Numbered from the stretch's first letter, positions 9,248-57,775 are shown. The stretch is DNA of 64,000 bases from an uncultured delta proteobacterium (GCA_963708295.1 CAVPSJ010000008.1:96001-160000), one strand, 5' to 3'. The notes: generated by a model not told the origin, from the sequence alone. Numbers and translations are program-made.

Positions 9248-9378
9248 AAATTCGAGATTCGAAATCCGAAGCACGAAACAAATTCAAATTTCGAAATATC
9301 GAAGACGGTTTAGATCATTTGAATTCTAGCCGACTGAGTTTGTTTCGGGTTTCGAGATTCGATATTCGGATTTTTAGT
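9248..9378. repeat. CGAAATC-type short-unit palindromic repeat
   Basis: cgaaatccgaagcacgaaacaaattc ... gtttcgggtttcgagattcgatattcg; same family at 49195, 50675, 57478 and 57715. Confidence 0.75.
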
Positions 9379-9392
9379 TTTTAAAGAAAGGG

Positions 9393-10374: not shown

Positions 10375-10428
10375 ATCGGCGGATCACTGAAAGTTGAACG
10401 CTTAAAACTGGATACAAGGAGCACTCAC

Positions 10429-27131: not shown

Positions 27132-28357
27132 CCCGTCTTCTTGCAGGTCTTCGGATTGCCCTGAGGGCGCTGATGGTCAATAAGATGCGTTCAGCCCTGA
27201 CGATGCTGGGGATCATCATCGGCGTGGGTGCGGTGATTGCTATGATTGCCGTGGGTTCAGGGGCCAAATCCAGAATCGCCGAGCAGATTGCCAGCATGGG
27301 ATCAAACATGCTGATCGTTATGTCAGGCAGCTCAACGAGCGGTGGATTTCGGTTCGGGAGTGGAACGGTGCCCACGCTGACCGTCGACGACGCCAAAGCG
27401 ATTGTATCAGAGATCCCTTCCGTGAAATATGTCGCCCCTTCCCTCCCAGGAGTGGCTCAGGTCGTTTACGGCAACCAGAACTGGTCTACCTCCATCAATG
27501 GGACAGCGCCGGAAATGCTCGACATCAGAGAATGGCCTGTGGGTTCGGGCCGCTCCTTTACCCAGCAGGATCTGGATGGAGCGACCAAGGTTTGTCTTTT
27601 GGGGACGACCGTGGTGGAAAATCTTTTTGGGGGGATCGATCCGGTTGGCCAGATTGTCCGTATTAAGAAGGTTCCTTTCACCGTGATCGGTGTCCTCGGC
27701 CATAAAGGCCAGACCTCCTTTGGACAGGATCAGGATGATACAATTTTTGTCCCCCTGACCACGGCTCAGAAAAGACTCTTCGGAATGCAATTCCCGGGCA
27801 TGGTCAGGACGATTACCGTCCAGGCCAGGGGACCGGACGTCATGGGGGAGGTCGAAGAGGGGATCAATTCCATCCTGCGACAGCGGCACCGGATCCAGCC
27901 AAGCCAGGATAATGATTTTAACGTCAGGAACCTCACCGAAATCATGTCCACTGCCCAAGAAACAGCCAGTGTTATGTCCTTGTTGTTGGGCGCCATTGCC
28001 TCCATCTCTCTCATGGTCGGAGGGATCGGGATTATGAATATCATGCTTGTTTCCGTAACGGAGAGAACCAGGGAGATCGGGATTCGCATGGCAGTGGGCG
28101 CAAAGGGGCGGGATATCCTCCTTCAATTCCTCATTGAATCCTTGGTACTCAGTTTGATTGGGGGAATCTTGGGAATTGCAATCGGGGTGGCGGGGACACT
28201 CATCCTATCCAGCTTAACGCAATGGCCGACCCTCTTCTCGATGCAAGCGATCCTTTTGGCCTTTCTCTTTTCCGGATCGGTAGGAGTATTTTTTGGATTC
28301 TACCCGGCCCGCAAAGCCTCTATGCTCAACCCCATCGAAGCCCTTCGCTACGAATAA
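27128..28357 (+). CDS. MacB-type ABC permease
   Basis: LTMLGIIIGV, GGIGIMNIMLVSVTERTREIG and PIEALRYE motifs. Confidence 0.95.
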   Translation: MTRLLAGLRIALRALMVNKMRSALTMLGIIIGVGAVIAMIAVGSGAKSRIAEQIASMGSNMLIVMSGSSTSGGFRFGSGTVPTLTVDDAKAIVSEIPSVKYVAPSLPGVAQVVYGNQNWSTSINGTAPEMLDIREWPVGSGRSFTQQDLDGATKVCLLGTTVVENLFGGIDPVGQIVRIKKVPFTVIGVLGHKGQTSFGQDQDDTIFVPLTTAQKRLFGMQFPGMVRTITVQARGPDVMGEVEEGINSILRQRHRIQPSQDNDFNVRNLTEIMSTAQETASVMSLLLGAIASISLMVGGIGIMNIMLVSVTERTREIGIRMAVGAKGRDILLQFLIESLVLSLIGGILGIAIGVAGTLILSSLTQWPTLFSMQAILLAFLFSGSVGVFFGFYPARKASMLNPIEALRYE

Positions 28358-28527
28358 GAGCACAGGCCAGAGGGCATAGCGCACAGCCCATAGCGTTAAA
28401 ACCTCTTCCGGTAATAACCCCTCATTGGCCATTCCGATAGGGATGCGAATTCGTCCCGAAGCGAATCAGAGTAGGCTTGGTCTTACACGTGTGGCCTTGC
28501 CCCGGTTCTGGCGGCTGAGGTGGAAAT

Positions 28528-29451
28528 TCATTTTATGGAATGATAACACTGAGTGATGGCTTCTTTCAGTTTCTGCCGGGCATTGGAAGGGGAGAGGGTG
28601 GGTCGAAAAGCAAAAACGCGTTGAGCCTTTCCAGTACTTAATTCCCAGGCGTCGGCTAAAAACGGGGCTCCCTTCCACTCTTTTGCAGAGATCACTTCGA
28701 GAGTAGAAGAGGAATTGGTTACCTCGATGATGATCCGGGCAACCTCCTCCCAGCTAAGAAAAAGGGTGGAGAGGTTGAATATTTCTCCAAAGGTCTTCGG
28801 CTTTTGTGAAGCAAGCAAGAGGGCGTTCCCGAGGTCATCCAGATGGAGGAAGCTTCCACCGGCGCCTCTGGGGACCATCAAAGGCTCCCCTGCTTGCCCA
28901 CGCTTGATCAGGTCACGAAGATGCCTCCCGCCAATCTCTTCGCCGTAGGACCACCGGAATCGGAAAATCGTCACAGGCAGTGCCTTGGTTTTAAAATAAG
29001 CCAACAAAAGCTTTTCTGCGGTCAGTTTGGCGATTCCGTAAAATGGTTTTCTCGCATCTTCGACCAAGCACGGATCTTCTTCGGTGATGGCAGATTTGGT
29101 GGGTTTGCCGTAGACGACTGCAGTGCTGGTGTAAAAGAAGTGAGAGATCTTTTCGGCCGCTGCCGCTTCTAGCAATAGGACATGCCCTTTGAGGTCGCTG
29201 GCCAAGAGCTCCATCGGGTCGTCAGAAAAGGACCAAGCCAGATGGACAATCACATCGGTCCCCTTGACGGCTCCACGGACGGCGGATGGGTCTTCTATCT
29301 CTCCTTTTATCAGTTCTAAATTTCTATGGTCCAACGATTGGAACTGATCAGCCTTTTTATCTAAAACCCTTATAGAATGTCCCTTGTCTAAGAGAAATCG
29401 GGTGAGGCCTTGTCCCACGGATCCAGCCCCACCCGTAATCAAGAATTTCAT
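28528..29451 (-). CDS. NAD-dependent epimerase/dehydratase (extended SDR)
   Basis: ITGGAGSVG, STAVVYG and YGIAK motifs. Confidence 0.9.
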   Translation of the reverse strand: MKFLITGGAGSVGQGLTRFLLDKGHSIRVLDKKADQFQSLDHRNLELIKGEIEDPSAVRGAVKGTDVIVHLAWSFSDDPMELLASDLKGHVLLLEAAAAEKISHFFYTSTAVVYGKPTKSAITEEDPCLVEDARKPFYGIAKLTAEKLLLAYFKTKALPVTIFRFRWSYGEEIGGRHLRDLIKRGQAGEPLMVPRGAGGSFLHLDDLGNALLLASQKPKTFGEIFNLSTLFLSWEEVARIIIEVTNSSSTLEVISAKEWKGAPFLADAWELSTGKAQRVFAFRPTLSPSNARQKLKEAITQCYHSIK

Positions 29452-29469
29452 GATGATGGTCCTGAGGAC

Positions 29470-30978
29470 TTAACTTTTAGTCGCCTTCTTAGCAGATTCC
29501 TTCTTTCTCCACTTGGAGATCGTTGGCCAGAAGAAGAGGAAGAGGGCGATCAACATTAACGGAAGCGCAATCGGAGGCCTGAAGAAGATCAGGGGATTGC
29601 CGTGACCCATGATGAGGGCTTGTCTCGCGGCTGACTCGGCCAGATTTCCAAGAACTAAGGCCAGCACCATCGGTGCCATGGGGTAGTCGAGTTTTTTGAA
29701 GAGATACCCAACGATACCGAAGATGATCATGTAGTAAATATCGATCATCCTGTTATTGACTGCAAAGGCGCCGATGGCGCAGACGTAGATGATGATGGGC
29801 ATCAGGATGCTGAATTTGATCCTGAGGATCGCTGCAAAGGCCGGAGCAAAGGCCAGGACAAGGATGAGACCCAGGAAATTGGCCACCCAGATGCTGCCGA
29901 TAAATCCCCAGACGAAATCGGCATGCTCCTTGAAAAGCATGGGTCCGGGTTGAAGCCCCATGATCATCAGGCCGCCCATGATGACGGCCATGGTCGGGGA
30001 ACCCGGAATACCAAGGGTAATCATGGGAAGTGTGGCGGCGGTTCCAGCGCCGTGACCGGCTGCCTCCGGTGCAATAATACCTGAAGAAGCCCCTTTACCA
30101 AATTGATCTTTATCGGCTGCTGAACTTTTGGCGAAGCCATAAGCCATGAAAGAGGCCGGTGTTGCCCCTCCTGGCTGGATGCCCAGCCAGCATCCGATCA
30201 GGGAACCCATGATGAGTATCCTTCGAAATCGTAAGAGATCCCTCAAACCATCCCAGATGTCTTTCAATGTTACCTTGGCCTTGACCCCCTCCATCTTGAG
30301 GCCTTCTTCAACGGTGAGGAAAATCTCCCCAAGCCCAAAGAGTCCGATGACAGCGACAATGAAGTGGAACCCTCCCATGAGAGGCACCGTGCCAAAGGTC
30401 ATGCGGAGTTTTCCGCTCACGATGTCCATCCCCACAGCCGCCAGAATGAATCCGAGGAAAATAGCGACCAGGGACTTTAAAGCGGATTTTCCACCCAATC
30501 GGGTCATGGCGCTGAAGGTGAGAACCATCACAGCAGCGGTTTCAGGAGGTCCAAACCTTAAGGCGAACTCCGCAATGATCGGAGCAAAAAAGGTAAGCAA
30601 AATGACGCCTATAATCGCCCCGACACCATGCGATAAGAAGGACAAGACCAGGGCCTTTCCTGCCCGTCCGCTCTTGGCCATAGGGTATCCGTCAAAAGTA
30701 ACCGCTACGGCCCAGGGTTCGCCGGGGATATTAAACAGGATGGAACAGATGCCTCCCCCATAAAGCGCCCCCCAGTAGATACATGCCAGCAGAATCACAG
30801 CCGACGTAGGACTCATGGCAAAGGTAATAGGGATCAGGATAGCAACTCCATTTGCTCCACCCAGACCCGGCAGGACCCCTACGATGATTCCTAAAATGAG
30901 ACCGACCATAGCGATCATAATATTGTAGGGCTGCACGGCAACGCTCAAACCCATGATCCAATTAGAAAAGATATCCAA
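29470..30978 (-). CDS. tctA: TTT permease TctA
   Basis: GVLPGLGG, NIPGEP, FDGYPMA and GIPGSPT motifs. Confidence 0.95.
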   Translation of the reverse strand: MDIFSNWIMGLSVAVQPYNIMIAMVGLILGIIVGVLPGLGGANGVAILIPITFAMSPTSAVILLACIYWGALYGGGICSILFNIPGEPWAVAVTFDGYPMAKSGRAGKALVLSFLSHGVGAIIGVILLTFFAPIIAEFALRFGPPETAAVMVLTFSAMTRLGGKSALKSLVAIFLGFILAAVGMDIVSGKLRMTFGTVPLMGGFHFIVAVIGLFGLGEIFLTVEEGLKMEGVKAKVTLKDIWDGLRDLLRFRRILIMGSLIGCWLGIQPGGATPASFMAYGFAKSSAADKDQFGKGASSGIIAPEAAGHGAGTAATLPMITLGIPGSPTMAVIMGGLMIMGLQPGPMLFKEHADFVWGFIGSIWVANFLGLILVLAFAPAFAAILRIKFSILMPIIIYVCAIGAFAVNNRMIDIYYMIIFGIVGYLFKKLDYPMAPMVLALVLGNLAESAARQALIMGHGNPLIFFRPPIALPLMLIALFLFFWPTISKWRKKESAKKATKS

Positions 30979-31002
30979 TGTCGTTCCTCCTTCCGGTTGG
31001 GA

Positions 31003-31489
31003 TTAAAAGGGCATAAGAGCCAAAATATTTTTTCCCCACACCCCTTCAGGCAGGGGAATTAAAAATATTTTGTCAAATAAGACATAGACGACCAGAGGCA
31101 CAAGAACACTCAAGAGGATCACTTTGCCCCAATGTATCCTCCCCACAACTCCCATATAGAATGCAAGATAGAGGACCGTGGCCAAATGGAGCCCGAGCAG
31201 TTCTGTCAATAGAACTACCCCGATGGCAGGAAGCAATACCCAGAGAATCTGAGCGGTACCTCCCTCCGGGACCAGGGGTTTTCCAGGCTCCTTCTTTCCT
31301 ATAAATCTTTATAGCCTTCAGCAGGATAAAGAAGGTGCTGATGACGATCCCCAAACCCATATAGAACGGGAAAAATCCTGATTCGGGACCACTCATTCCC
31401 CATCCAAAGCCCAGTCTCACGGCATCTCCAAGCGCCAGAAGCCCAACCACCATTAAACCCAACGCCACGACAATGTCGGCCTTTCGCAT
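31003..31489 (-). CDS. tctB: TctB (frameshift near 31280)
   Basis: GPESGFFPFY; C-terminal LIPLPEG. Confidence 0.85.
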
Positions 31490-31535
31490 CTTTCCTCCCT
31501 TTAAGACGCTCCTCAAAATTCAAACGTCATAGAAG

Positions 31536-31568
31536 GTAAGGGAACAGGAGATCCTCCCGTTCCCTTAC
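31536..31568. terminator. Strong hairpin between tctC and tctB
   Basis: GTAAGGGAAC-AGGAG-ATC-CTCC-CGTTCCCTTAC. Confidence 0.6.
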
Positions 31569-31588
31569 GAAGGCTTGTTTTTCCTCTA

Positions 31589-32573
31589 TTACTTGATCAA
31601 TCCTCCCTTGGTCATGAGGTCTTTATGAATGACTTCCTGCTCTCCGACCCATTTGGCATAATCAGGGCCTGAAAGGAACGCTGCCTTAAGACCCATGTCT
31701 GAGACGTATTTTTTCCATTCCGGGAGTTTCGGTGACTTTCTTCAAACAGTCCACATAGAAATCCTGCTGCTCTTTTGTGATGCCGGGGGCTGCAAAGATA
31801 CCACGAAGCATCAGATAGCTCATATCCACACCCGTAGCTTCCTTCATCGTCGGAATCTTATCCCACTCCGGAAGGGCAATGCGCGCGTGATCAATGGTCG
31901 CTAACGGTTTCAGTCTTCCCGCCTTCCAGTGGCTGACGGCTTCTGCAGGATTGTTGACTGTTGAATTGATGTGCTTGCCGACGAGCTCGACCGCCACATC
32001 TCCGCCACCCTTGAAGGGGACATAGGTAAACTTTACGCCAAAGGCCTGCTCCATCATGATGGTGATGATTTGGTCTTCCTGGGCTGTCCCTGTTCCACCC
32101 ATCATGAATTTTCCCGGTTCTTTTTTTACGGCATCGAGGTATTCTTTAACCGTCTTATAAGGGGCCTCCGCATTGACCCAGAGGACAAAATAGTCAAGGG
32201 CAAGGCGGGCAAGCGGTGTCATATCCTTCCAACTGAAAGGAACACCTGTTGCCAGAGGGGTTGTAAAGAGATTGGACAGGGTGATGATCACCGTATTGGG
32301 GTCACCCTTTTTCCCCTTGACATACATAAACCCTTCCGCCCCTGCACCTCCTGACTTATTAATCACGATCCAAGGTGTTGGGCAAAGCTTGTACTTCGAG
32401 ACAAGCGGGGAGATGAATCGAGCCATCTGGTCAGCCCCACCACCCGATCCCGCAGGGACGACGAACTCCACGGGCTTATTGGGCTGCCAGGCGTCTGCCG
32501 TTCCGATCATGCCGAAAAACATCATCAATGAACAAACCGCTACCCCCATCATTCTTAATGGCACTTTTTTCAT
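31589..32573 (-). CDS. tctC: TctC substrate-binding protein (frameshift near 31725)
   Basis: Signal peptide; PVEFVVPAGSGGGADQMAR and YVPFKGGG motifs. Confidence 0.9.
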
Positions 32574-32727
32574 GTCTTACCTCCTCTCAAGGGTTTTAGA
32601 AGACGAATCCAAGAATTCCTTTTTGACACTTCAACAGAGACCCCTGGAATCTTCCTTTTTCAATTCTTTTTTCGCACCCCATCCCTGAACCGTGTGAGGA
32701 TCAAGGATGGGTGGACCTTTTTTTCCG

Positions 32728-33763
<1,036 letters not shown>

Positions 33764-34958
33764 CTATATTTCTTCTTCAAAACCAACCCAGTAAACAAGC
33801 TGCTGGGTCTTCTTATCTTTGGCCATCTGCGTGAGGATTTTAGCCATGTAGTAGAAATCCTCGAGCATGATGACATCCCCACCCAAACCGGCCATAAAAG
33901 AGGTAACCAGTGGTCTTTTATCCAGATCGTAAAGAGAGGTCCTGACTTCATGAATCAGATTTCCACCTCTCGTTGCACCACCGTAAGAAGTGCTGCTCTC
34001 CACGCAACCCACTGCTTTCACCTGAGAGAGAGCCTCCGCAATTTGCTCGGTGGGCCAGGGACGAACCCATCTCGGCCTTACCATCCCTGCCTTTACTCCC
34101 TGGCTTCGGAGATGGTTGATTGCCGACTTGCAGGTATTGGCATGAGCCCCTTGGATGAAGAATGCGATTTCCGCATCCTCCATCTTATATTTCTCCAGAT
34201 AGGGGTCATAATTTCGTCCGAAAATGCGGTTGAAATCATCGATCGCTTTTTCGATTACTTTTGGAAGTTCCAAAAAGGTCATTGCCCTCTGCGCATCCAT
34301 CGGTGCACCCTGATCGGGCCGGATTTGCGGACCGTGCGATACCGGGCATTGAGGACTGAGAGGATGAGGAGCCTTATAGGGAGGTAAAAATTCTCTCACC
34401 TGGGCCATCTCAGGTAGAATGACCTTATCCGGAATATGGGAAAGGAAGTAACCATCCTGGCATACAAACTGGGGCAGCATGATCCGCGGGTCTTCTCCCA
34501 CGCGGTAATTGATCAAGGTATTATCAAAGACCTCCTGTGGGGTTGCGGCCCAGCCCATCAACCAACCCTGATCCCTTGCAGACATGGCATCGGTATGCTC
34601 CGAACCAAAATCACCCGGAGGATCGAGGGTTCGATCCGCAATGGCCATCTGGAAGAGGATAACGGCCGCCGGCTGCCGGGCTATAGACTTCAAACGCATA
34701 GGTGACACCCACTCCGGAACTTCCGGTATAGGCACGGGCGCCGGCTGCCGAAGCGCCAAGCGCCACGGAGACCTGGGCGTGCTCGCCTTCACCATGGATA
34801 AATTCTGCATCCAGTTCGCCGTTGGCGACCATTCTGGCAAGCTCCATCATGATCGCCGTATAGGGACGGATGGGGAACGAACAGATGACCTCTACTTCTG
34901 CAAATTTTGCTCCTTGTGCTGCTGCTGCGCAGCCGCTGAGCATTTTTTCTTGAGCCAT
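33764..34958 (-). CDS. oorA: Oxalate oxidoreductase alpha subunit, frameshift near 34660
   Basis: FPIRPY, GEGEHAQ, ADRTLDPPGDFG and GPQI match the OOR-specific residues (PFOR has YPITP). Confidence 0.85.
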
Positions 34959-34974
34959 AATTTTTCCTCCTTCA

Positions 34975-35304
34975 TTAGAAAGGTTTTTCGAGACGAACAA
35001 CCCCATCCTCAAAGTCAAGCTCTGGGGCAGCACTCAGGGCATCCGCCGGACATTCGTGGATGCAGATCTGACAGCCTTTGCAAAACTTCCAATTCCATTC
35101 CATCTTTTCTTCCTTTTCATTGAAAGACCAGCAGGAATCGGGACAGGCGATATAACAGGTAAAACAGCGGGTGCACTTCTCATGGTCAATCACGGGACGA
35201 ACAATCCGCCAGTTTGACGTGATGAAAAGCTCCTGCTGCTTGACCGGGGCGGGCGTGATCGCCCCAAAGGGAACTTCTCTGTCTTTTGGAACTTTTATAG
35301 GCAT
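34975..35304 (-). CDS. 2-oxoacid oxidoreductase delta (2x[4Fe-4S]) subunit
   Basis: WRIVRPVID, CTRCFTCYIACP and CKGCQICIHECP. Confidence 0.92.
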   Translation of the reverse strand: MPIKVPKDREVPFGAITPAPVKQQELFITSNWRIVRPVIDHEKCTRCFTCYIACPDSCWSFNEKEEKMEWNWKFCKGCQICIHECPADALSAAPELDFEDGVVRLEKPF

Positions 35305-35414
35305 AACCTTCTCCTTTCTATTAACTTCTTAATATAAGTGATTTATCATTCTGCATTCCGCATTCTGCAATCCGCACTCGGGATCAGCCTCCCCAGAAGT
35401 ACTCAGCCCGGGAT

Positions 35415-36023
35415 TTACGAAATTTTTGGAGTTTTCACTTCATTATAGCCACGATCCATGGCTGCAACGTCGCTCACAATCTTTGCCAGGTTCTCTTTTT
35501 TGGCCATACCCGTCACCCTCGCCATCGCTCCAAGGATGGGGGCGGCAATGCCGGCTCCAATTCCTGCCGTGTCAACCCCTCCTTCAGAACCGGAGAAGTC
35601 AACCGTCTTTATCCCGGAGATTCCATCGGCGTCCACCGTGGCAATGGCACCCAGCAGATCCGCATTCGGAATAAATTTGAGCATATAATCGATCGGCCGG
35701 TTCGTATTGATGATCAGGAGACCGCCTTCAGGCATCCCTTTGAGCACATTGATCCCTTTAACGATGGTGGGTTCAACGATCACCACCACATCCGGGTGAG
35801 CGTTCGTATAGAGATATTTCATCTCGATCTCTTCATCACTGATTCTCGCGTATTTCCGGGTCGTAACGAGCACACGATCGGGCAGGTCTTCGTAATTGTC
35901 AAAGGCCTGGACGAATTTGCCCTCCATCTTTGCAGCCTGGGCAAAGGCATTGGCGACGTCACGGGCCTCTTTGTCCATGACCACCCCTCGTGTCCAAACA
36001 GTTATTTCAGTCACTTTACCCAT
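35415..36023 (-). CDS. Oxalate oxidoreductase gamma-type subunit
   Basis: ITVWTRGVVMDKEARD, YEDLPDR and GIGAGIAAP, as recalled from the N-terminal part of the Moorella OOR delta chain. Confidence 0.85.
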   Translation of the reverse strand: MGKVTEITVWTRGVVMDKEARDVANAFAQAAKMEGKFVQAFDNYEDLPDRVLVTTRKYARISDEEIEMKYLYTNAHPDVVVIVEPTIVKGINVLKGMPEGGLLIINTNRPIDYMLKFIPNADLLGAIATVDADGISGIKTVDFSGSEGGVDTAGIGAGIAAPILGAMARVTGMAKKENLAKIVSDVAAMDRGYNEVKTPKIS

Positions 36024-36099
36024 AAACGAATACCTCCTTAAAGCAATGTTGATCAATTAAACTGATTTTCCTAAACCTTAACACCAGAACATAATCCGT

Positions 36100-36820
36100 T
36101 TAATGACGGCGATGACTTTTTCCCACCTCCTTTCTTTTTTTAAAGAGTATATCTTCCACCTCCTCCAAGTGCCGACGCATGGCCTGTCGACTGGCTGCAG
36201 GATTACGCCTCTTGATGGCAGCAAGGATCTCCTGATGGCCTTGAAGGGATTTCTGTTTTCTTTCCTCCGTTTGAAGGTACCTCTCACGGGTTTGTCTCAA
36301 GAAGGTCGAAAAGGGCAAGCAGAAGACGTTCCAAAACCCTGTTTCTTGCCATCCGGGCCAGACAATGATGAAAATCGGAATCGGTTTGAATCGGGTTCAT
36401 CCCGCGGCCGACTTCCTTTTCTTGTTCTTTGAGGATCTCCTCCAGCTCGTTGATTTCTTCGGGGGCTGCATTTTCTGAAGCCAGTTGAGCCACTTCGGGC
36501 TCGATGATTTTACGGAGGGAAAAGATATCGATCAGATCATCCTTTTCATGAAAGAGGGAGGTGGCCAAGGGTTGCACCAGGGCTTCTTCACTCGAGGCGA
36601 TGACGTAAGTTCCATTTCCCTGTCGTCTCTCCACAAGGTTCATCGTTTCAAGGGAAAAGATGGCCTCCCTGACAGAGGCGCGGGATACCTTGAAGGTTTC
36701 GACTAGTTCTCTTTCTGTCGGGAGCTGGTCGCCTCGCTTTAATTTCCCCTTCTCGATAAGATGATCGATCTGTCTTACGATATCCTCATAGGCTCGCTTT
36801 TTTCTCACTGCTTTCAACAT
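36100..36820 (-). CDS. FadR/GntR transcriptional regulator (frameshift near 36295)
   Basis: LPTERELVETFKVSRASVREA wHTH; DSDFH and HQEIL in the FCD domain. Confidence 0.9.
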
Positions 36821-38949
36821 GAGGAAACCCCTCCTTCTCCTGAACCTCTTTGAGCGCCTCTTCAAAATGAGAAGCAGTGACCAAAAGCTTCTTTGATTTG
36901 CTTTTCTCCGGGTCTTGGATCAACCCGCCGATGGCCATCATGGTTGCACTCCTGCAGATGAAGGCGATTTGAGAACCCGCCATCCCTTCCGTGCCTTTGG
37001 CCAATTCCGCCAGGTCGACGTCGTCGGCTAAGGGCCTCTCTTTCGTGTGGACCCGAAAGATCTCCAACCGCTCTTCCTCATCGGGGATGGGAAATTTAAG
37101 AATATAATCGAGCCGTCCGGCGCGCATTAAGGCGGGATCGAGCAAATCTTCACGATTCGTCGCCCCGAGCACGATGACCTGAGAAAGATCGCTCAGGTTA
37201 TCCAACTCGTTGAAAAACTGACTGGCCATGCGTTCAACCGCCCCGCCGTCACTTCCGTAACCGCGGGTGGTCACGAGGGCATCGATTTCATCGAAGAACA
37301 GGATGCAGGGGGCCGACTGTTTCGCCTTCTTAAAGATCTGATGGAGCGCCTTTTCTGATTCTCCAAGCCATTTCGAGAAAAGGATGGGACCGCTGATGGA
37401 GATGAAATTCAAGCCCGTTTCGCCCGCCAAAGCCTTTGCCATCAGCGTCTTCCCCGTGCCTGAGGGCCCGGAGAAAAGAACCCCTCTCGGGGGGCGCACG
37501 TTTCCTTCGTCAAAAAGCTCCGGGAATTTGTGAGGCCAGTCGACGATGGAGATAAGGGTTTCTCTGATTCGCTTCAATCCGCCGATGTGATGCCACTGGA
37601 CCTTAGACCTTTCGGTGTAGAATTCACGCGTGGCCGTGGGTTCAATCTCACGGAGGGCGGTTAAGAAATCCTCCATGGTGATCTGCAGATGATCCGGGTT
37701 GAGCAGCATGGCATCGAGATGATTTTCGCCCTCGAGAGAAAGATATCTCCTTAAAGCCACCATCCCCGCCTCTTTGCATAAGGCCTCGATGTCCGCTCCG
37801 ACAAAGGCATGGGTAATTTGCGAAAGACGGTCCAGATCGACATCCGGGGCCAGAGGCATACGGCGGCTGTGAATCCTGAGAATGGCCAGGCGGCCTTCGA
37901 CGTTGGGAACCGGAAGAGCGATCTCACGGTCGAAGCGACCCGGTCGTCTGAGAGCGGGGTCGATCATCTCCGGGATGTTGGTGGCGCCGATAACGATCAC
38001 CTGTCCGCGGGAGACCACCCCATCCATCAGGGCCAGGAGCTGGGCAACCACCCTTTTTTCGACATCCCCTAAAACCTCTGCGCGCTTTGGAGCAATGGCA
38101 TCGATTTCGTCGATAAAGATGATGCTGGGCGCATTGCGGGTTGCATCTTCAAAGATCTCCCGGAGGCGGGCTTCACTTTCGCCGTAGAATTTATGGATGA
38201 TTTCCGGTCCGTTGACACGGATAAAATGGAGCTTGGTTTCGCTGGCGATGGCGCGGGCAATCAAGGTTTTCCCCGTCCCGGGAGGACCGTAGAGAAGCAC
38301 CCCCTTGGGTGCTTCGACCCCCAGTTTTTCAAAGACTTCCGCGTAGCGCAAGGGGAGTTCGACCATCTCGCGAACGAGCCTTAATTCTCTTCTGAGTCCG
38401 CCCACATCCTCGTAAGAGACATGAGAAGGTGGCTTCGACGGGGAAATCCGGGTTTTTGATGAGGAATTTGGTTTTTGAGTTAATCAAGACCCCCCCGGAG
38501 GGGGAAGTCGCTTCGACCAGGAAAAAACGGTCTTTCCCCGTCAAAAAGGGAATATTGATTTTATCCCCAATCAGGACGGGTAATCCCTGGAGGATTTTTG
38601 GAAACTGCTCCAACTCGGTTCCTTCCGGGACGACGTTTGTTAAATCGAGAGGCGTGATAAGGACCGTGGCGGCGATTTTATAGGGGATTTTTTTTATTCT
38701 TACAATTTCCCCCAGGTTTACCTCGGCATTGCTGCGGGTGATCCCGTCGATCTGAATGATTTTTTTCCCGTAATACTCGGGGAAGGTTCCGGTGATCCTG
38801 GCGACGGTCTTTTTCTCCCCGCTCATCTCGATCAGATCGCCAAGGACGCCCCCTAATGCCTTGATATCCTCTGGATCAAGGCGCGCCAATCCCTTCCCGA
38901 CGTCTTCAGCCATTGTCTCGCTTACTCTTAGATCTATCGTCGCCGACAT
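36786..38949 (-). CDS. CDC48/p97-family AAA ATPase (frameshift near 38425)
   Basis: N-domain DVGKGLARLD/IDGITRSNA; two AAA modules GPPGTGKT and GPSGTGKT, each with DEID and RxGR. Confidence 0.92.
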
Positions 38950-39078
38950 TCAGGAAGCCTCTATCCAGGGAGCAGGAAATCGAACCCTTTCGCCGTGAAG
39001 GAAAACGTTCTTGTGTGGCCGGGATGTTGCCCCGCTGGGACGTTGGAGAGGAAACAATGAGCTCTACCTGCGGGGCTT

Positions 39079-39141
39079 CATTGGTTTAGTGATCAGACCA
39101 TTCAACAAGTCTTTTTATCCAAAAGTCTGTACTCTTGTCAA
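39079..39141 (-). promoter_or_regulatory. Promoter plus FadR-type operator upstream of cdc48-fadR-oor
   Basis: Minus strand TTGACA-17/18 bp-(A)TAAAA followed by AATGGTCTGATCACTAAACCAAT, resembling TGGTCnGACCA boxes of LldR/PdhR. Confidence 0.6.
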
Positions 39142-39356
39142 GACATTTTTTTGAGACTTTCCCGAATTTTCGGCTAGGGGGGGAGGAGATGATCGGTCTG
39201 TTTGCCCCGTTCGAGACTTGTCTCTACATGGGGTGAACGCGGGGTTGAATGTCCCGTGTGAGCCTTCGCGTTAGAATGGTGAAGACTTTCCCAACGGGGT
39301 TTATTTGTCTCCTTTTCTTGCTTTCTCCAAAAGAATTTCTGCACGAACAGGATGGG

Positions 39357-40238
39357 TTATTCCAGAGGAATATCAACAGGCACATTGCCTTCCCTGATCG
39401 GTGGAACGATGGGGGGTTGCCCCGTTTTCTTCAAAATCTGCCGCCCTTCTGCAGAGAGCATCAGTTTGATGAAGTGATTCGCTGAAGTGATATTCTTTGC
39501 AGTACATGGAATTGTAGCCACGTTCCGGATATTTTCACTCAGGTTTACCTTTGCAGGAAATGAAATGATATCCGTTTCATCGGCAACCGTCACCGCGGCT
39601 GACAGATAGACGATACCGGCATCGGCCTTACCGCTTTTAACCGCTTTCAAAACATCAGGAATAGTTTCTTCCTTTACGGCCCTGTCTATTATCCTTTGCG
39701 ACACATCCGGCTTGCCTTCGGCTGCCGCTGCTCTTTTGATAAATTCAATCGTCCGGTTAGTGGCCATGTCTTTTTCACCGGTTACCCGCGCAAGCTTTAC
39801 CTCGTCCTTGATCAAATCGGTCATTTGCTTCACACCAAGTGGGTTGCCTTTTTTCGTGATAATCACCAGTTCATTGGCCGAAAATACGACGTACCAGGAT
39901 GCGGCGTCCTTGCTGCCGACCTTCTTGCCGAACATATTCTTAACCACCGCCGGATCGGAAGGTGCGAAGACGTCGCAGACATCCCCTTTGAGGATTCGCT
40001 CGGCCAGCTCTCTGGACCGACCGGAGGTAAGATTCACGATGATGCCGGGGTTTTTCCCCTCAAACGCTCTTTTCATTTCGTTCATCGGGCCAGCCAATGA
40101 ATCAGCATGCCACACCTCTAAAGTCATTTTTTCCCCTCCCGCATTTTGGGCAGCCGCCGCAGTTTGGCAGTACCCGGCCAATGCTACCATCAATACCAGT
40201 AAACCCAGGGAACAGAGGACTTTCGAGAACGAAGACAT
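39357..40238 (-). CDS. ModA/WtpA-like oxyanion-binding periplasmic protein
   Basis: HADSL, SGRSRELA, DVFAPSD, NELVI and DAGIVY motifs; signal peptide. Confidence 0.8.
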   Translation of the reverse strand: MSSFSKVLCSLGLLVLMVALAGYCQTAAAAQNAGGEKMTLEVWHADSLAGPMNEMKRAFEGKNPGIIVNLTSGRSRELAERILKGDVCDVFAPSDPAVVKNMFGKKVGSKDAASWYVVFSANELVIITKKGNPLGVKQMTDLIKDEVKLARVTGEKDMATNRTIEFIKRAAAAEGKPDVSQRIIDRAVKEETIPDVLKAVKSGKADAGIVYLSAAVTVADETDIISFPAKVNLSENIRNVATIPCTAKNITSANHFIKLMLSAEGRQILKKTGQPPIVPPIREGNVPVDIPLE

Positions 40239-40298
40239 GAAGGAACCCTCCTTTGCTCGATGCGCGACAATCCAGGGTCTTCCCCGCTTGCCGAACGA

Positions 40299-41795
40299 CT
40301 AAAACAAGGCTCGGCGGACTCGGCCCCATGCAAGGGAAATCGCCGGCCAGAACAGCAGGAGGAGCCCGGCGGTCATAATCGCGCCGACAAGCCAGTTTGA
40401 AAAGAAAATACTCAATGCTCCCTGGGATCCCAATATGGCCTGGCGGAACGAAACTTCAGTCGGGTCTCCAAGCACTATGGCCAATATCAGAGGTGCCAAT
40501 GGATAATCCAGCTTTTTGAAGACATAACCGATAACGCCGAATGTCAGCATGACCCAGATGTTGAACATGGCATTGTTCACGGTGAAGGCGCCGATCGCAC
40601 ACACCACGACAATGACCGGGGCGATGATCGAAAAGGGGATGCGAAGGATCGCCGCGAATAGCGGCACGGTGGACAGAACGATGACCAGGCCGACGACGTT
40701 CGACAGATACATGCTGGCGATCAGGCCCCAGACAAAGTCCTTTTGCTCGATGAACAACAGCGGACCCGGCTGCAGCCCCCAGATCATCAGGCCGCCCAGC
40801 AGCACCGCTGCAGTGGCAGAGCCGGGGATGCCCAGCGCCATCATCGGCAGCAGCGCGGCGCAGCCGGACCCGTGGGCAGCAGTCTCGGGTGCAAGCACGC
40901 CTTCCAGTTCACCCTTGCCGAAATTGGCGCCATTTTTTGAAATGCGCTTAGCAAGGCCGTAGCTCATGAAGGATGCGGCTGTTGCACCGCCCGGTTTGAA
41001 ACCCATCCATGCACCGATGGCCATGCCTAAGAGCAGCGTCAGCCAGTACTTTGGTAGCTTTTTCCATGTTTGCCACACGACCTTCGGGTTGATCTTGGCG
41101 TGTACACCTTGGAATTTAAGACCCTCTTCCATGCTGACCAGGATTTCTCCGACGCCGAACAGGCCGATCACCACAACCAGGAAATCGACGCCCCGCAGCA
41201 GCTCGGACCAACCAAAGGTAAGGCGGAGCGTGCCGCTGACGTTATCCATGCCGATTTGGGCCACGCCAAAGCCGAGCATTAGGGAGGCGATGGTCTTGAA
41301 CGGGTCCTTGCCCGTGCCGATGAAACTGGCAAAGGTCAGAAAATAGACGGCAAAGAATTCCGGTGGACCGAATTTCAGCGCAAACTTTGCCACCAGCGGC
41401 GCAAGGAAGGTGATCATCAAAACGGAAAAAAGGGCGCCGAAGAACGATCCGGTGAAGGAGGCGGTGAGAGCTTCGCCGGCCCTGCCCTGCTGGGCCAGGG
41501 GGTAGCCGTCGAACGTGGTGGCCACCGAATGCGATTCACCGGGAATATTGAACAGGATCGAGGTAATGGCTCCTGCAAACAACGAGCCCCAATAGATACA
41601 CGATAACATGACGATTGCCGAGGTGGGAGACATAGTAAACGTGAGCGGCAGCAGGATGGCAACGCCGTTCGGCCCTCCCAAGCCCGGCAGCACGCCGACG
41701 ATTATTCCCAGTATAAGGCCGATCGCCATCATGCCGAGGTTATACCAGCTAAATATAAGCAAAAAACCATGGAATAGATTTGCCAGGTCCGCCAC
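40299..41795 (-). CDS. tctA: TTT permease TctA
   Basis: GVLPGLGG, NIPGE and GIPGSAT; close paralog of 29470-30978. Confidence 0.95.
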   Translation of the reverse strand: MADLANLFHGFLLIFSWYNLGMMAIGLILGIIVGVLPGLGGPNGVAILLPLTFTMSPTSAIVMLSCIYWGSLFAGAITSILFNIPGESHSVATTFDGYPLAQQGRAGEALTASFTGSFFGALFSVLMITFLAPLVAKFALKFGPPEFFAVYFLTFASFIGTGKDPFKTIASLMLGFGVAQIGMDNVSGTLRLTFGWSELLRGVDFLVVVIGLFGVGEILVSMEEGLKFQGVHAKINPKVVWQTWKKLPKYWLTLLLGMAIGAWMGFKPGGATAASFMSYGLAKRISKNGANFGKGELEGVLAPETAAHGSGCAALLPMMALGIPGSATAAVLLGGLMIWGLQPGPLLFIEQKDFVWGLIASMYLSNVVGLVIVLSTVPLFAAILRIPFSIIAPVIVVVCAIGAFTVNNAMFNIWVMLTFGVIGYVFKKLDYPLAPLILAIVLGDPTEVSFRQAILGSQGALSIFFSNWLVGAIMTAGLLLLFWPAISLAWGRVRRALF

Positions 41796-41961
41796 TTGAC
41801 AATCCTCCTAAACGGTAACGCTTTCAAAAATCGCATAGCGCATAGGGCCCTTCGATTTCACTCAGGGCAGGCGCCGCGCATGGCGTAAGAACTCAAAATA
41901 AAAGTTAAAAATTAAACCAGAGACTATTTCCATGATATCAGAGGGAATTGGTGAAAACCGC

Positions 41962-42477
41962 TTAATAACCGAACAGGGCTTCCAGCGGCCCCTTGGGCAG
42001 CGGAACCATGAACTGAATTTCAAACATCCAGAAAAGCATTATACTTATGCAGACGCTGACCAGGATGACTTTAAGCCAGCTGAACTTGGCCAGCGCCCGC
42101 ATGAAGCCCCCGATGAACACCGCGGAGGCGACATAGATGCCAATGAATTGGGTGACCAATACATAGAGAACAGCAGGTATCAGCACGTAAAGCACCATCT
42201 TGAAACGGTCCCAAGAAACGAAGAGTTCATGATTGCGGTGTTTGCCGAAAAGCGCCCTGAGTAAAATGACAACGCTTGAAATACTGATGATGGCCCCGGT
42301 GCGGAACGGAAAGTATCCAGCCTGAGGCCCTTCAGGGGCCCAACCCATCCCGATTCTCTGGCTGTCCATCATCATCACAACGCCGATGAGGAAGATGGCG
42401 ACTGCCACGATCACCTCCGCTGCCTGATAGGTCAACCGGACCGAACGAGGTCGTTCCTGCGTTTGTTTCTGTTCCAT
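41962..42477 (-). CDS. tctB: TctB
   Basis: GPQAGYFPF and VPLPKGP motifs. Confidence 0.9.
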   Translation of the reverse strand: MEQKQTQERPRSVRLTYQAAEVIVAVAIFLIGVVMMMDSQRIGMGWAPEGPQAGYFPFRTGAIISISSVVILLRALFGKHRNHELFVSWDRFKMVLYVLIPAVLYVLVTQFIGIYVASAVFIGGFMRALAKFSWLKVILVSVCISIMLFWMFEIQFMVPLPKGPLEALFGY

Positions 42478-42508
42478 GCACTACCTCCCCTGACGAACGG
42501 AGAAACAG

Positions 42509-42568: not shown

Positions 42569-43582
42569 CTATTTCTTCGCTGCAAACCCGGCTTCGGTCA
42601 TCAGCTGTACGTGTTTTGCCATATCTTTTTTCAGGAAGTCGACAAACTCGTCTCCGGTGGCATAGTGCCGCGTGAGCGCCATGTTCTCGGTGTATTCTTG
42701 CCACTCCGGTTTTGAAACTACCTGTTTCAGCAGATCGGCGTAGAACGCGACCTGTTCCTTGGTGGTTCCGGGTGGCAGGAAGAAGGCGCGCAGCATCTGG
42801 TATTGCACATCGATTCCCTGCGACTTGCAGGTGGGGATGTCGGACCATGCTATGTCCGCAATCTTTTTCTTATAGTCCATGGGCTTATCGGAGAAAACGC
42901 ACAAGGGGCGCGCCGTGCCGGCCCGCCACTGAGCAACGTTCTCGCTGGGGTTGTTGACATTGGAATCGATGTGTTTACCGGCCAGTTGGGTGGAAGCCTC
43001 GCCTCCGCTTTTATAGGGGATATAGATTATTTTTTTCCCGACAACTTTTTCGAGTGCAACATTGATGATCTGGTCTTCTCGCTTCGAGCCGGTGCCGCCC
43101 ATCTTGAAGGACCCCTCCGACGCCGCTTTTATGGCGTTGACATAGTCCTTCGCCGTCTTGTAGGGCGAATCTGAATGGACCCACAGGATAAAATCATCCA
43201 AAGCGATCATTGCCACGGGGTTGAAGTTTTCCCAGCCGAGCGGCAGACCCTGCGCGATCGGCAGGGTATAGATGAGGGAGAACGCAACCAGGAGTTTGTG
43301 GGGATCAGCCTTGGCCTCTTTGACCTCCATGGCGCCCTCGGCGCCGCTCGCGCCGCCCTTATTGAAGATCATAACGGGCTGTTTGATCAATTTGTGCTTC
43401 AGAATGATGCCCTGGATTGTGCGCGCCATCTGATCTGACGCACCGCCCGCGCCGGCGGGAACAATGAACTCCACCGGCTTGGTGGGTTCCCAAGCGGCGG
43501 CGCCAGAGGGTACCGTCGCGGCACCTGCCAGGACTACCGCAGCCATCAGGATACTGTACGATAACCTTCTAATCTGTCTCAT
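42569..43582 (-). CDS. tctC: TctC substrate-binding protein
   Basis: WEPTKPVEFIVPAGAGG, MGGTGSKREDQI and YIPYKSGG motifs. Confidence 0.92.
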   Translation of the reverse strand: MRQIRRLSYSILMAAVVLAGAATVPSGAAAWEPTKPVEFIVPAGAGGASDQMARTIQGIILKHKLIKQPVMIFNKGGASGAEGAMEVKEAKADPHKLLVAFSLIYTLPIAQGLPLGWENFNPVAMIALDDFILWVHSDSPYKTAKDYVNAIKAASEGSFKMGGTGSKREDQIINVALEKVVGKKIIYIPYKSGGEASTQLAGKHIDSNVNNPSENVAQWRAGTARPLCVFSDKPMDYKKKIADIAWSDIPTCKSQGIDVQYQMLRAFFLPPGTTKEQVAFYADLLKQVVSKPEWQEYTENMALTRHYATGDEFVDFLKKDMAKHVQLMTEAGFAAKK

Positions 43583-43642
43583 CGTTTTTCCTCCTTCTTT
43601 TGGTTAGGTTCTTTTGGTGTATGAAACACCATCACTCCAATT

Positions 43643-44809
43643 TCAACGCGCGGCAAGGAAATCCATCGCCGCCATGACACCACCTTGTTTATAAGGCACG
43701 CCGGTCAGGGCAAACCCCATTTCCACCCCGCCCAGGGTCCCGATCAACATCAGGTCGTTGAAATCCCCCAGGTGGCCGATCCGAAAGACCCGATCCTTTA
43801 GTATTCCCAGACCGTTTCCCAGGGACATGTTGAACTTGTCAAGCACCGTCGCCCGGAATGCGTCCGCGCTGTGCCCCTCGGGCATCAGGACCGTCGTCAG
43901 GACCGGACTGTACTCTTCGGGGTTAAGACAGAGGATCGGAAGCTCCCAGGTCCGAACCGCCCGACGCGCGGCTTCGCCATGACGATGATGACGGTTGAAG
44001 ACGTTTTCGAGTTCTTCTTCCATCAGCATGCGGAGGGATTCCCTGAGGCCGTAGAGCAGATTGGTCGCCGGAGAGCTCGGGAAAAAGCCGTCCTTGTTGG
44101 CCGTGAACATCTCATCCCAGGACCAGTAGGATTTGATGAGACGGGCTTTTTTCGAAGCGGCAAGGGCCTTGGCGCTGACCGCGTTGAACCCGAGGCCGGG
44201 AGGAAGCATGAGCCCCTTCTGCGAGCAGCCGACTGTGACGTCTACCCCCCATTCGTCGTGGCGGTAGTCGATGGAGCCGAGGGAGGAGATCGTATCGATC
44301 ATGAAGAGCGCCGGATGGCCGGCCCGGTCAATGGCCTGACGCACCTCGGCGATTCGGCTCGTGACGCCAGTGGATGTTTCATTATGAACGACGGCAACCG
44401 CCTTAAAGGAGTGTTTTCGATCTTCGGTTAATTTCGATTCGACCACAGCGGGATCGACACCATGGCGCCAGTCCCCGGAAACGAAGTCAACCTCCAGCCC
44501 CAGGCGGATCGCCATATTCTTCCAGAGGGTGGCAAAGTGCCCCGTTTCGAACATCAGTACCTTGTCCCCGGGCGAGAGGGTGTTGACCAGGCTCGCCTCC
44601 CACGCGCCGGTTCCTGACGAGGCGAAGATCATGACGGGACCGGCCGTTTTGAACACGCCTTTGAGACCTTCAAACACCTCGCCGGCCAGCGCCTTGAACT
44701 CGGGTCCGCGGTGATCGATGGTCGGTTTGGCCATGGCCCGCAGGACCCGTTCAGGCACGTTCGTTGGCCCCGGAATCTGCAGGAAATGACGTCCACTCGG
44801 ATCTGACAT
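43643..44809 (-). CDS. Serine/alanine-glyoxylate aminotransferase (class V PLP)
   Basis: GRHFLQIPGPTNVP, HNETSTG, DTISS, SQKGLMLPPG and FRIGHLG motifs. Confidence 0.92.
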   Translation of the reverse strand: MSDPSGRHFLQIPGPTNVPERVLRAMAKPTIDHRGPEFKALAGEVFEGLKGVFKTAGPVMIFASSGTGAWEASLVNTLSPGDKVLMFETGHFATLWKNMAIRLGLEVDFVSGDWRHGVDPAVVESKLTEDRKHSFKAVAVVHNETSTGVTSRIAEVRQAIDRAGHPALFMIDTISSLGSIDYRHDEWGVDVTVGCSQKGLMLPPGLGFNAVSAKALAASKKARLIKSYWSWDEMFTANKDGFFPSSPATNLLYGLRESLRMLMEEELENVFNRHHRHGEAARRAVRTWELPILCLNPEEYSPVLTTVLMPEGHSADAFRATVLDKFNMSLGNGLGILKDRVFRIGHLGDFNDLMLIGTLGGVEMGFALTGVPYKQGGVMAAMDFLAAR

Positions 44810-44879
44810 CTCTATTCCTCCGCCTGTCTTGATAGTCTCTAAGTGGCAAAAAAAAGGGTAAGAGCTCGCTTCAGGGTCG

Positions 44880-44913
44880 GTTGTTTATACAAGAAAGAGA
44901 AATTGCATGTCAA
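44880..44913 (-). promoter_or_regulatory. sigma70 promoter of the aminotransferase-TTT operon
   Basis: Minus strand TTGACA-18 bp-TATAAA overlapping TTGTATAAACAA. Confidence 0.55.
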
Positions 44914-49194: not shown

Positions 49195-49330
49195 GAAAAT
49201 TCGAAATCCGAATATCGAAATCCGAAACAAATTCAAAACCCAAATATCCCAATGATCCAAACACGGTGATCTTGTTCTTGATTCTTATGAATTTGGTTTG
49301 TTTCGAATTTCGGATTTCGATATTCGAGTT
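49195..49330. repeat. CGAAATC palindromic repeat
   Basis: cgaaatccgaatatcgaaatccgaaacaaa ... tttcggatttcgatattcg. Confidence 0.75.
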
Positions 49331-49341
49331 TCATCATGTCC

Positions 49342-50649: not shown

Positions 50650-50674
50650 CGTTTTCTCCTTCCGATGAATTAGA

Positions 50675-50860
50675 GAAAATTCGAAATTCGAATATCGAAA
50701 TCCGAAACAAATCCAAAATCCAGAATTAAGTCCTTAAGAAGTTTCATCCGTAATGGTCATTGATGTTTCGAGCATTCGAGATTGTTTCGAGTTTCGAAAT
50801 TTGTGCTTCGGATTTAAGACGTTCTTGCTTCGAAAGATATCAGATCTTCGTGCTTCGAAG
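50675..50860. repeat. CGAAATC palindromic repeat
   Basis: Same units as 49195-49330. Confidence 0.7.
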
Positions 50861-53278: not shown

Positions 53279-53521
53279 ATGGCATTCAGAGTAATGGTCG
53301 ACGAAAAAAAATGTACAGGATGCGAGGAGTGCGTGGAAGTCTGCACAGTTGGTGTATTTGAGATAAGAGAGAATAGGTGCGTCCCCGTAGGCAATGAAAA
53401 GTGTCTCGGTTGCGAAATCTGCGTTACGGTTTGCGAAAGACAAGCGATCACGGTCGAAGAGGTAAAGGTGAAGCTTTCCGATACGGCCAAGTCCCTGTTC
53501 AAGGATATCCCGTTCGATTAA
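53279..53521 (+). CDS. 2[4Fe-4S] ferredoxin
   Basis: CTGCEECVEVC and CLGCEICVTVC. Confidence 0.93.
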   Translation: MAFRVMVDEKKCTGCEECVEVCTVGVFEIRENRCVPVGNEKCLGCEICVTVCERQAITVEEVKVKLSDTAKSLFKDIPFD

Positions 53522-53701
53522 CAGGCTGATGAAAAATACCCATCTGCAGCGTTCCCCGGTCGCCTTACCGTCTCGGCGACATTGAAATAAGTCGCTCCTT
53601 ATTCATCGCGACGCCACCCTCATTCCTCAGAATTTCGGATGCCTTGCATCTGCCTGTCTGCCGAAGCCTCGGCGCAGGCAGGGGCATTTTTGATCAGCCT
53701 G
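53522..53701. mobile_element. MITE-like element, copy 3, with nested inserts
   Basis: CAGGCTGATGAAAAA ... TTTTTGATCAGCCTG; starts immediately after the ferredoxin stop codon. Confidence 0.75.
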
Positions 53702-57477: not shown

Positions 57478-57775
57478 TCAAATACGAAATCCGAATATCG
57501 GGCGAAGCGTCCGCCTCGGACCAATCCGAAACAAATTCGAATGGCCTAAACTCAAAACAAGGCCATACACAACGTAATAAAATGCAGTGAAGAGCGTCAT
57601 TCCCGCCCCGATTTCCATCGGGATAAACTCGGCGGGAATCTAGCAGAGAACACTGGATTCCGGGTCAAGCCCGGAATGACAAAAAGAATAAGATTTCTAT
57701 CGTCATGTTTGGAAGATTTGAATTTAGGATTTTGATATTGTTTCGTATTTCGAATTTCGTGCTTCGGATTTTTCG
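57478..57775. repeat. CGAAATC repeat arms enclosing a GTCATTCC...GGAATGAC REP-like palindrome
   Basis: gtcattcccgcc...gggaatc...ggattcc...ggaatgac at 57596-57680, between cgaaatccga arms. Confidence 0.7.

Follow-up and report, generated by a model that had tools for sequence, protein, structure and literature searches.

A gene cluster for an oxalate oxidoreductase-type enzyme and a TctCBA-type transporter in an uncultured delta proteobacterium

The DNA analysed here, referred to as the window, is a stretch of 64,000 nucleotides from an uncultured delta proteobacterium (GCA_963708295.1, CAVPSJ010000008.1:96001-160000), from a genome that is 91% complete. From its sequence a four-subunit oxalate oxidoreductase (OOR) operon with its own tripartite tricarboxylate transporter (TTT) had been predicted (the original prediction). 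Ten minus-strand genes were found to span positions 28528-38949: a Cdc48-type AAA+ ATPase, a GntR-family regulator, the gamma, delta, alpha and beta subunits of a 2-oxoacid:ferredoxin oxidoreductase (OFOR) of the OOR type, tctC-tctB-tctA of a TTT system, and a short-chain dehydrogenase/reductase (SDR) (Table 1). The closest named relatives of the host are metagenome-assembled genomes (MAGs) of Thermodesulfobacteriota/Syntrophales, which agrees with the non-Firmicute host that had been proposed.

Genes of the cluster and its relatives

The OOR-type genes, tctCBA and the SDR all lie on the minus strand at the positions originally predicted for them, and every motif quoted for the enzyme was found: PIRP (34874..34863), DRTLDPPGDFG (34636..34604) and GPQI (34333..34322) in alpha, and YANTG (33283..33269) in beta, where GDGG is also present. 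A GGAGG-type ribosome-binding site lies 5' of each gene from gamma through tctA. The predicted extent of the operon held for the genes from gamma to the SDR and was too short at its start, given that the GntR/FCD regulator and the Cdc48-type ATPase upstream belong to the conserved unit. Scanning positions 28300-39300 gave 10 promoter-like sites, where shuffled sequence led one to expect 8.4, and 19 terminator-like sites, where 14.3 were expected; with counts this close to expectation, the scan is silent on co-transcription of tctCBA with the enzyme genes. In none of the RNA runs listed did the matches exceed 0.05 of the words sampled.

Table 1 Genes of the cluster, in window coordinates
Gene product	Position	Strand	Remarks
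Cdc48/VAT-type double-ring AAA+ ATPase	38949..36786	minus	First gene of the conserved cluster; broken at ~38431
GntR-family regulator with FCD ligand domain	36820..~36100	minus	Extra base at ~36298-36301
OOR gamma subunit (domain III), 202 aa as assembled	36023..35415	minus	Extra base at 35431
OOR delta subunit (domain V), 109 aa	35304..34975	minus	Intact; two [4Fe-4S] motifs
OOR alpha subunit (domains I-II)	34958..33764	minus	Split by an extra base at ~34649-34655
OOR beta subunit (domain VI; thiamine pyrophosphate and proximal-cluster site)	33733..32728	minus	Split by an extra base at 33249
TctC-type periplasmic binding protein with signal peptide	32573..~31589	minus	Open reading frame truncated by an extra base at ~31721-31725
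TctB small membrane subunit	~31489..~31003	minus	Extra base at ~31286-31289
TctA large membrane subunit, 502 aa	30978..29470	minus	Intact; Pfam TctA
Extended SDR (NAD-dependent epimerase/dehydratase family), 307 aa	29451..28528	minus	Intact; Pfam Epimerase

One genome per species was scanned, which gave 162 loci encoding an alpha relative; of these 162, the best 80 were examined. By their record titles, the Thermodesulfobacteriota among them were Syntrophales, Syntrophorhabdales, Desulfomonilaceae and Syntrophobacter; the other hosts were Nitrospirota, Methylomirabilota, Myxococcota including Anaeromyxobacter, Betaproteobacteria, Deferrimicrobiaceae and one Bacillota MAG. Enough DNA was available 5' of gamma at 60 loci, where both the ATPase and the GntR gene were found at 50, the ATPase only at three, the GntR gene only at one and neither at six. 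The Cdc48-type ATPase thus precedes OOR at 53 of 60 loci from several phyla, including the one Bacillota locus. Published descriptions of OOR-type clusters in these lineages were not found in a literature search that took in listings and passages.

The ATPase of the window matched Pfam CDC48_N and CDC48_2 on its N-terminal piece and two AAA domains with a lid on its C-terminal piece. In a genome of the same genus (G003) its ortholog is a single frame of 720 aa that scored 821.6 bits against TIGR01243 (cut-off 802.65). In Pfam the regulator scored 75.4 bits for GntR and 58.3 bits for FCD, the latter over profile positions 1-80 of 125 only; past the extra base its frame runs on for another 65 residues to 36100, and the G003 ortholog has 245 aa. 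The SDR matched Pfam Epimerase (112.6 bits), and the GxxGxxG and YxxxK signatures were read from its translation. No NCBIfam equivalog reached its cut-off for the SDR and the best PDB match was 67.4 bits; searches of PDB, NCBIfam and ESM Atlas returned only generic epimerase/dehydratase relatives. A similar SDR follows the transporter at 28 of 50 loci with 5 kb or more of downstream DNA.

In addition to these genes, short intergenic stretches of 50-140 nt in the window (~57478-57711, 53518-53628, 50673-50816, 49196-49333 and 39235-39310) each had dozens of matches (72-96% identity) spread over many contigs of five genomes of the same genus, and look like dispersed intergenic repeats.

Assignment of the enzyme and its four subunits

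For all pieces of the enzyme in the window, the NCBIfam equivalogs for OOR were by far the best matches. Alpha and beta are each seen as two overlapping open reading frames (ORFs) because of one extra base in each gene. The two alpha pieces scored 165.3 bits (profile positions 1-102) and 400.0 bits (positions 102-394) against NF045791, and only 88.5 and 193.0 bits against the next-best family; each piece falls under the 500-bit cut-off because the frameshift splits the gene, and the intact alpha of G003 passed it with 581.1 bits. Gamma scored 245.5 bits over profile positions 12-204 of 316 of NF045790 (cut-off 230; 243.9 bits for the gamma part of G003), and delta scored 105.5 bits over positions 227-316 of the same profile. 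The beta pieces scored 300.8 and 257.3 bits against NF045792. By these profile scores OOR is clearly the nearest family for beta, despite the missed cut-off that is weighed below; the next family scored 327.7 bits.

Searches of PDB gave the same result. The alpha of an intact same-genus ortholog scored 514.8 bits against the OOR of Moorella thermoacetica (5C4I, chain 5c4i_A) and 205.3 bits against the next structure, a pyruvate:ferredoxin oxidoreductase (PFOR); the corresponding values were 506.9 (5c4i_C) versus 264.7 bits for the G003 beta, 205.1 (5c4i_B residues 13-205) versus 50.4 bits for gamma, and 103.7 (5c4i_B residues 226-315) versus 65.8 bits for delta. Alpha and beta aligned with the Moorella chains over their full length without gaps, with identical active-site stretches.

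Alpha scores were bimodal across 41 related genomes, with 13 at 564-607 bits and all other matches at 320 bits or less; the two window pieces sum to ~565 bits, within the OOR-type group. All 71 full-length alphas taken from other loci carry both [YF]PIRPYT and DPPGDFG. In the host genome itself, the three remaining OFOR alphas have YPITPQT and are without the DPPGDFG loop. Parts of PMC5020499 name Arg31 of YPIRP, Arg109 and Asp116 as the oxalate-specific features of the Moorella enzyme, and describe that enzyme as an (abc)2 assembly in which the third subunit carries domains III-V and CoA (coenzyme A) is not needed. The window alpha has FPIRP and IADRTLDPPGDFG, matching these Arg and Asp features. 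In a tree of alpha sequences the OOR-type clade was set off from the paralogs of the host by a long branch with 100% support in the SH-aLRT branch test; the fused form is represented in this tree by the Bacillota MAG locus (L105) in place of Moorella.

Compared with known systems, the cluster shares with Moorella OOR (5C4I, 5EXD, 5EXE; NF045790-92) the full-length alignment of alpha and beta, the YPIRP-type Arg, DRTLDPPGDFG, GPQI, three [4Fe-4S] sites and a gene order of domains III, V, I-II and VI. Moorella is a Bacillota acetogen, whereas the type seen in the window occurs in Thermodesulfobacteriota and other Gram-negative anaerobes and is known here from genes. With the PorABCD/VorABCD-type OFORs (e.g., PDB 9bt4), the cluster shares the split into alpha, beta, gamma and delta and the set of cofactors; it differs from them in that alpha and beta reached only 205 and 265 bits, and in that these enzymes have YPITP with Thr, as do the three paralogs of the host. 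PorABCD/VorABCD-type enzymes use CoA.

Several points weigh against the assignment of oxalate as substrate. The intact G003 beta scored 566.5 bits and so fell short of the NF045792 cut-off of 590 by 23.5 bits; we know of no assay for any four-subunit form; and the functional assignment draws on a single characterised enzyme that is about two-thirds identical. A relative of OOR with another small substrate (such as glyoxylate, oxamate or a different 2-oxoacid) and perhaps a use for CoA would fit with the shortfall of beta and with a family in which a single member is known to have been assayed, and the conserved SDR and AAA ATPase hint at chemistry beyond the splitting of oxalate. This explanation is nevertheless considered highly improbable, given that the residue blocks named for oxalate binding are invariant or nearly so in 71 sequences, that the alignment to Moorella alpha and beta is gap-free with the active site conserved, and that the alternative neighbour at related loci is an oxalate/formate-antiporter equivalog (see below). 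The identification of the enzyme as an OOR-type OFOR is well supported by these comparisons, and the original assignment was borne out by the equivalog matches, the alignments, the PIRP motif and the position of the clade apart from the OFOR paralogs.

In the window, gamma ends in a TAA stop that is followed by a 110-nt spacer and then by delta with a ribosome-binding site of its own, AAAGGAGAAGG. Delta carries two CxxCxxCxxxCP motifs at 35175..35140 and 35082..35047. Moorella OOR has one 315-aa subunit that fuses domains III and V (according to the part of PMC5020499 that describes it), whereas the window has two genes and hence four subunits, as had been proposed. Gamma and delta were split at 73 of 74 scorable related loci, a count that includes high-GC loci with overlapping genes or with one frame interrupted by a single stop, and the lone fused case was the Bacillota MAG. 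The split is therefore real and is the rule at related loci. A fused gamma-delta gene broken by a frameshift was considered and rejected: relatives without the 35431 insertion also have a gamma stop and a separate delta start, as in G003. The corrected gamma tail, QKFRKSRAEYFWGG, agrees with G003, and the insertion alters the last few residues only. At 12 loci (L046, L056, L067, L068, L072, L078, L082, L083, L086, L087, L091 and L092) gamma and delta are in the same frame with one stop between them, which could be due to chance in short GC-rich spacers.

The transporter that follows beta

The three genes after beta encode TctA, TctB and TctC together, and the order tctC-tctB-tctA is kept in relatives. 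TctA matched its Pfam profile over positions 1-423 of 423 (461.7 bits) and is 97% identical to its G008 ortholog; TctC scored 93.9 bits against Pfam and is 85% identical to an intact ortholog at locus L098. The N-terminal piece of TctB scored 20.1 bits, under the cut-off of 29.1. The layout, the full-length TctA and a TctC with signal peptide are those of known TctCBA systems. Among solved TTT binding proteins (BugD, Bug27 and the terephthalate- and adipate-binding proteins; 2f5x, 2qpq, 8hka, 5oei, 4x9t) the best match for TctC was 4x9t at 125.4 bits. An AlphaFold2 model of TctC from a 14-row alignment (A1) was poor (mean predicted local distance difference test score of 51.3; predicted template modelling score of 0.45).

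The slot after beta was scorable at 69 loci. It holds a TTT system at 24 of them, co-directional as in the window at 21 and convergent with OOR at three, and a transporter of the major facilitator superfamily (MFS) at 35. Of these 35 MFS proteins 13 were tested, and all had the oxalate/formate antiporter equivalog TIGR04259 (OxlT) as best match, with 10 above its cut-off of 335 bits. In G003 such a protein (370.9 bits) is encoded at the exact position of tctCBA. When the TTT or MFS label was placed on the alpha tree, at least 10 changes were required, six to nine of which are forced by well-supported branches alone. OxlT presumably serves the same step, the entry of oxalate, and belongs to an unrelated family, a single-component exchanger as opposed to the binding-protein-dependent secondary transporter of the TTT type.

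The TctC proteins linked to the cluster form a tightly conserved group of their own within the TTT family and are 65-85% identical across phyla; the second TctC of the window, 10 kb away, is 43% identical. In the 41 related genomes, TctC orthologs of at least 85% identity were found in four (the window's own, G008, G019 and G024), all of which bear OOR, with the TctC gene adjoining OOR in each; none was found in the 27 OOR-less genomes. Given that the 41 genomes are kin, these co-occurrence counts are descriptive only. The host genome (91% complete) has no OxlT above cut-off (best 187 bits, cut-off 335), no oxalyl-CoA decarboxylase (Oxc) above cut-off (367.7 versus 739.4) and no formyl-CoA transferase (Frc) above cut-off (203.2 versus 504.2). 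Taken together, the swapping within the slot, the confinement of this TctC to OOR-bearing genomes and the lack of OxlT, Oxc and Frc above cut-off single out the TTT system as the strongest candidate for the entry of oxalate. OOR makes no formate, and an exchanger would thus be without an export substrate; an importer that depends on a binding protein would be suited to scavenging.

Other observations count against oxalate import by TctCBA. At 10 of the 69 loci the slot holds neither transporter (a distant OFOR at six, something else at four), and the TTT genes at three loci face OOR. Furthermore, since OOR yields no formate, OxlT-type homologs at sister loci would not by themselves prove that either transporter carries oxalate. 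The TTT system could simply be a neighbour that imports another carboxylate, with oxalate entering by another route. The diversity of TTT binding proteins, the convergent loci and the fact that the closest solved binding protein, 4x9t, is uncharacterised are in keeping with this, and no TTT binding protein is known to us to bind oxalate. Such a mere neighbour would not be expected to alternate with an OxlT-family MFS in the same slot through at least 10 switches, to have its TctC ortholog confined to OOR-bearing genomes and adjacent to OOR in four of four, or to show as strong a conservation of its TctC between phyla as is seen for the enzyme subunits; nor does the host genome have an OxlT-type gene above cut-off. 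This alternative is regarded as unlikely. That TctCBA imports oxalate is plausible but unproven from these comparisons, and the earlier claim of a TTT importer rather than OxlT stood in part: it gained comparative support from the alternation over 59 loci and from the lack of an OxlT above cut-off in the genome. A literature search on oxalate and TTT proteins yielded no link beyond incidental mention, and an oxalate ligand, if true, would be new for the TTT family.

Further transporter and OFOR genes were observed near the cluster or at related loci. In the Betaproteobacteria-type loci L066, L076, L079, L080, L093 and L104, the transporter's place directly after beta is taken by the delta, alpha and beta genes of a second OFOR, a distant one with 27-37% identity. 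The window holds a second, unrelated TTT system on the minus strand (TctC 42569-43603, TctB 41962-42480, TctA 40299-41807), which is preceded by a class-V aminotransferase (43643-44884) and followed by an SBP_bac_11 binding protein (39357-40298); in G008 the ortholog of this second TctC lies on another contig. One open frame at 993-2546 of the window matched the TctA profile (152-423) and then the TctB profile (56-137), an odd order for a TTT system.

Integrity of the reading frames and proposed function

Compared with three to five relatives each, seven of the genes (ATPase, GntR, gamma at its tail, alpha, beta, tctC and tctB) contain one extra base, and delta, tctA and the SDR are unbroken. 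The ATPase insertion was called against G003, G011 and G008, and that of tctB against L025, L098, L040, L029 and L032. The original reading was right that the genes are present and had missed the seven frameshifts. All seven events are +1 insertions, and the shifted frames stay open to full-length, ortholog-like ends; after the break the frame is open for 43 residues in tctC, matching the C-terminus of the orthologs, and for 93 in tctB. Across 1704 codons the changes unique to the window lineage were 20 synonymous and 7 non-synonymous, a ratio of 0.35 that lies within the range of five intact relatives (0.26-0.58), and the window had the fewest unique changes. Short-read contigs from four wetland metagenome runs were mostly without the extra bases where they covered them: the contig depth without the extra base was 8.69 of 8.69, 34.5 of 38.4 and 8.28 of 8.28 at 33249, and 185 of 185 and 153.4 of 153.4 at 36301. 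A DNA search of five same-genus genomes with the 19.9 kb beyond the cluster gave matches at 64-87% identity that were too patchy for indel counts. The breaks are most likely consensus errors concentrated in a stretch that is common to co-occurring relatives, and the organism therefore probably has a working cluster.

Four observations weigh against this reading. In run X2, 0 of a depth of 98.1 was without the extra base at 34655; the wetland contigs are 90-99% alike and need not come from the window's strain; the breaks (7 in 10.5 kb) are ~6 to 25 times as dense as elsewhere, compared with a handful across the remaining 53 kb of the window and three or more in a 100-kb sample of the genome; and rpoB and rpoC are whole in the host genome. 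Because of the higher density and the intact rpoB and rpoC, recent decay stays an alternative. It would mean that the OOR/TTT module is genuine but dead in this strain, with seven real insertions in a decaying unit. Consistent with decay, 7 of 10 adjacent genes are broken, and overlapping same-strand ORF pairs, a barely discriminating proxy, are only modestly more frequent genome-wide (8.6 per 100 kb) than in loci of relatives (6.1-6.5). A decaying unit would not be expected to show seven +1 insertions without a single deletion or nonsense codon and with every downstream frame open. The ratio of non-synonymous to synonymous changes is like that of intact relatives, and selection would therefore have acted on the window lineage to the very tip; moreover, presumably needed genes elsewhere are also split (a thiamine diphosphate (ThDP) enzyme at C5:132596-134220 and a CobT-like gene). 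Decay of the cluster is accordingly judged distinctly unlikely.

Split genes were also seen outside the cluster. Both ArsA/Get3-type ATPase genes at 9378-11413 of the window are present as two overlapping ORFs each, with ArsA_ATPase profile positions 2-90 / 93-303 and 2-169 / 178-303 on the pieces, and are probably frameshifted in the assembly too. In the 100-kb genome sample, a formate-dehydrogenase-like gene and the CobT-like gene are split. The formate-dehydrogenase-like molybdopterin enzyme is in four ORFs (G000:C4 ~536922-539650; L121 16922-19650), where one junction is an in-frame stop compatible with selenocysteine and the other two are frameshift-like. The ThDP enzyme is in three pieces.

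Taken as a whole, the locus is moderately probable to be a working cluster in which a four-subunit OOR and TctCBA form a module for anaerobic oxalate oxidation. The genes present, their families, the conserved motifs and the synteny with its distribution were observed, and from these we infer the substrate, the lack of a need for CoA, what TctC binds and what the ATPase, the regulator and the SDR do. In the proposed mechanism, TctC would capture oxalate in the periplasm and TctAB would carry it across the membrane, a task that would fall to the OxlT-family MFS in sister genomes. The gamma-delta-alpha-beta ThDP/[4Fe-4S] enzyme would then split oxalate into two CO2 without CoA and pass two low-potential electrons from it to ferredoxin, and the Arg of (Y/F)PIRP and the DRTLDPPGDFG loop would serve as oxalate-binding and plug elements, as in the Moorella enzyme.

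A broader proposal is put forward tentatively, with chances a little below even. The Cdc48-type unfoldase, GntR sensor, four-subunit OOR, interchangeable OxlT or TTT and, often, SDR would constitute a portable module that provides a CoA-free, ferredoxin-reducing route for oxalate in a wide range of uncultured anaerobes from wetland, soil and groundwater, and TctC would be the first oxalate-specific TTT binding protein. The hosts of such a module would include Syntrophales, Desulfomonilaceae, Nitrospirota, Methylomirabilota, Anaeromyxobacter, Deferrimicrobia and Betaproteobacteria. If this is true, TctC would allow high-affinity scavenging under conditions where an oxalate/formate exchanger is pointless.

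Oxalate is a major acid of plants, fungi and root exudates, and what becomes of it without oxygen in soils and wetlands is usually described in terms of the oxalyl-CoA decarboxylase route. To our knowledge only one acetogen has yielded a characterised OOR. In a survey of oxalate degraders, OOR was left out for lack of information, according to the part of the text that deals with it (PMC8062136). Clusters of the OOR type are common among uncultured anaerobes, with at least seven named lineages represented; their usual form is four-subunit, and they are accompanied by one or the other of two unrelated transporters. The architecture is thus common and not peculiar to the host genome. For annotation, the cluster calls for caution, as its genes would be called pseudogenes or fragments in this assembly although the breaks are probably artefacts. 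It also makes oxalate a possible new substrate of TTT systems that can be put to the test, and its genes may serve as markers for anaerobic oxalate turnover in metagenomes.

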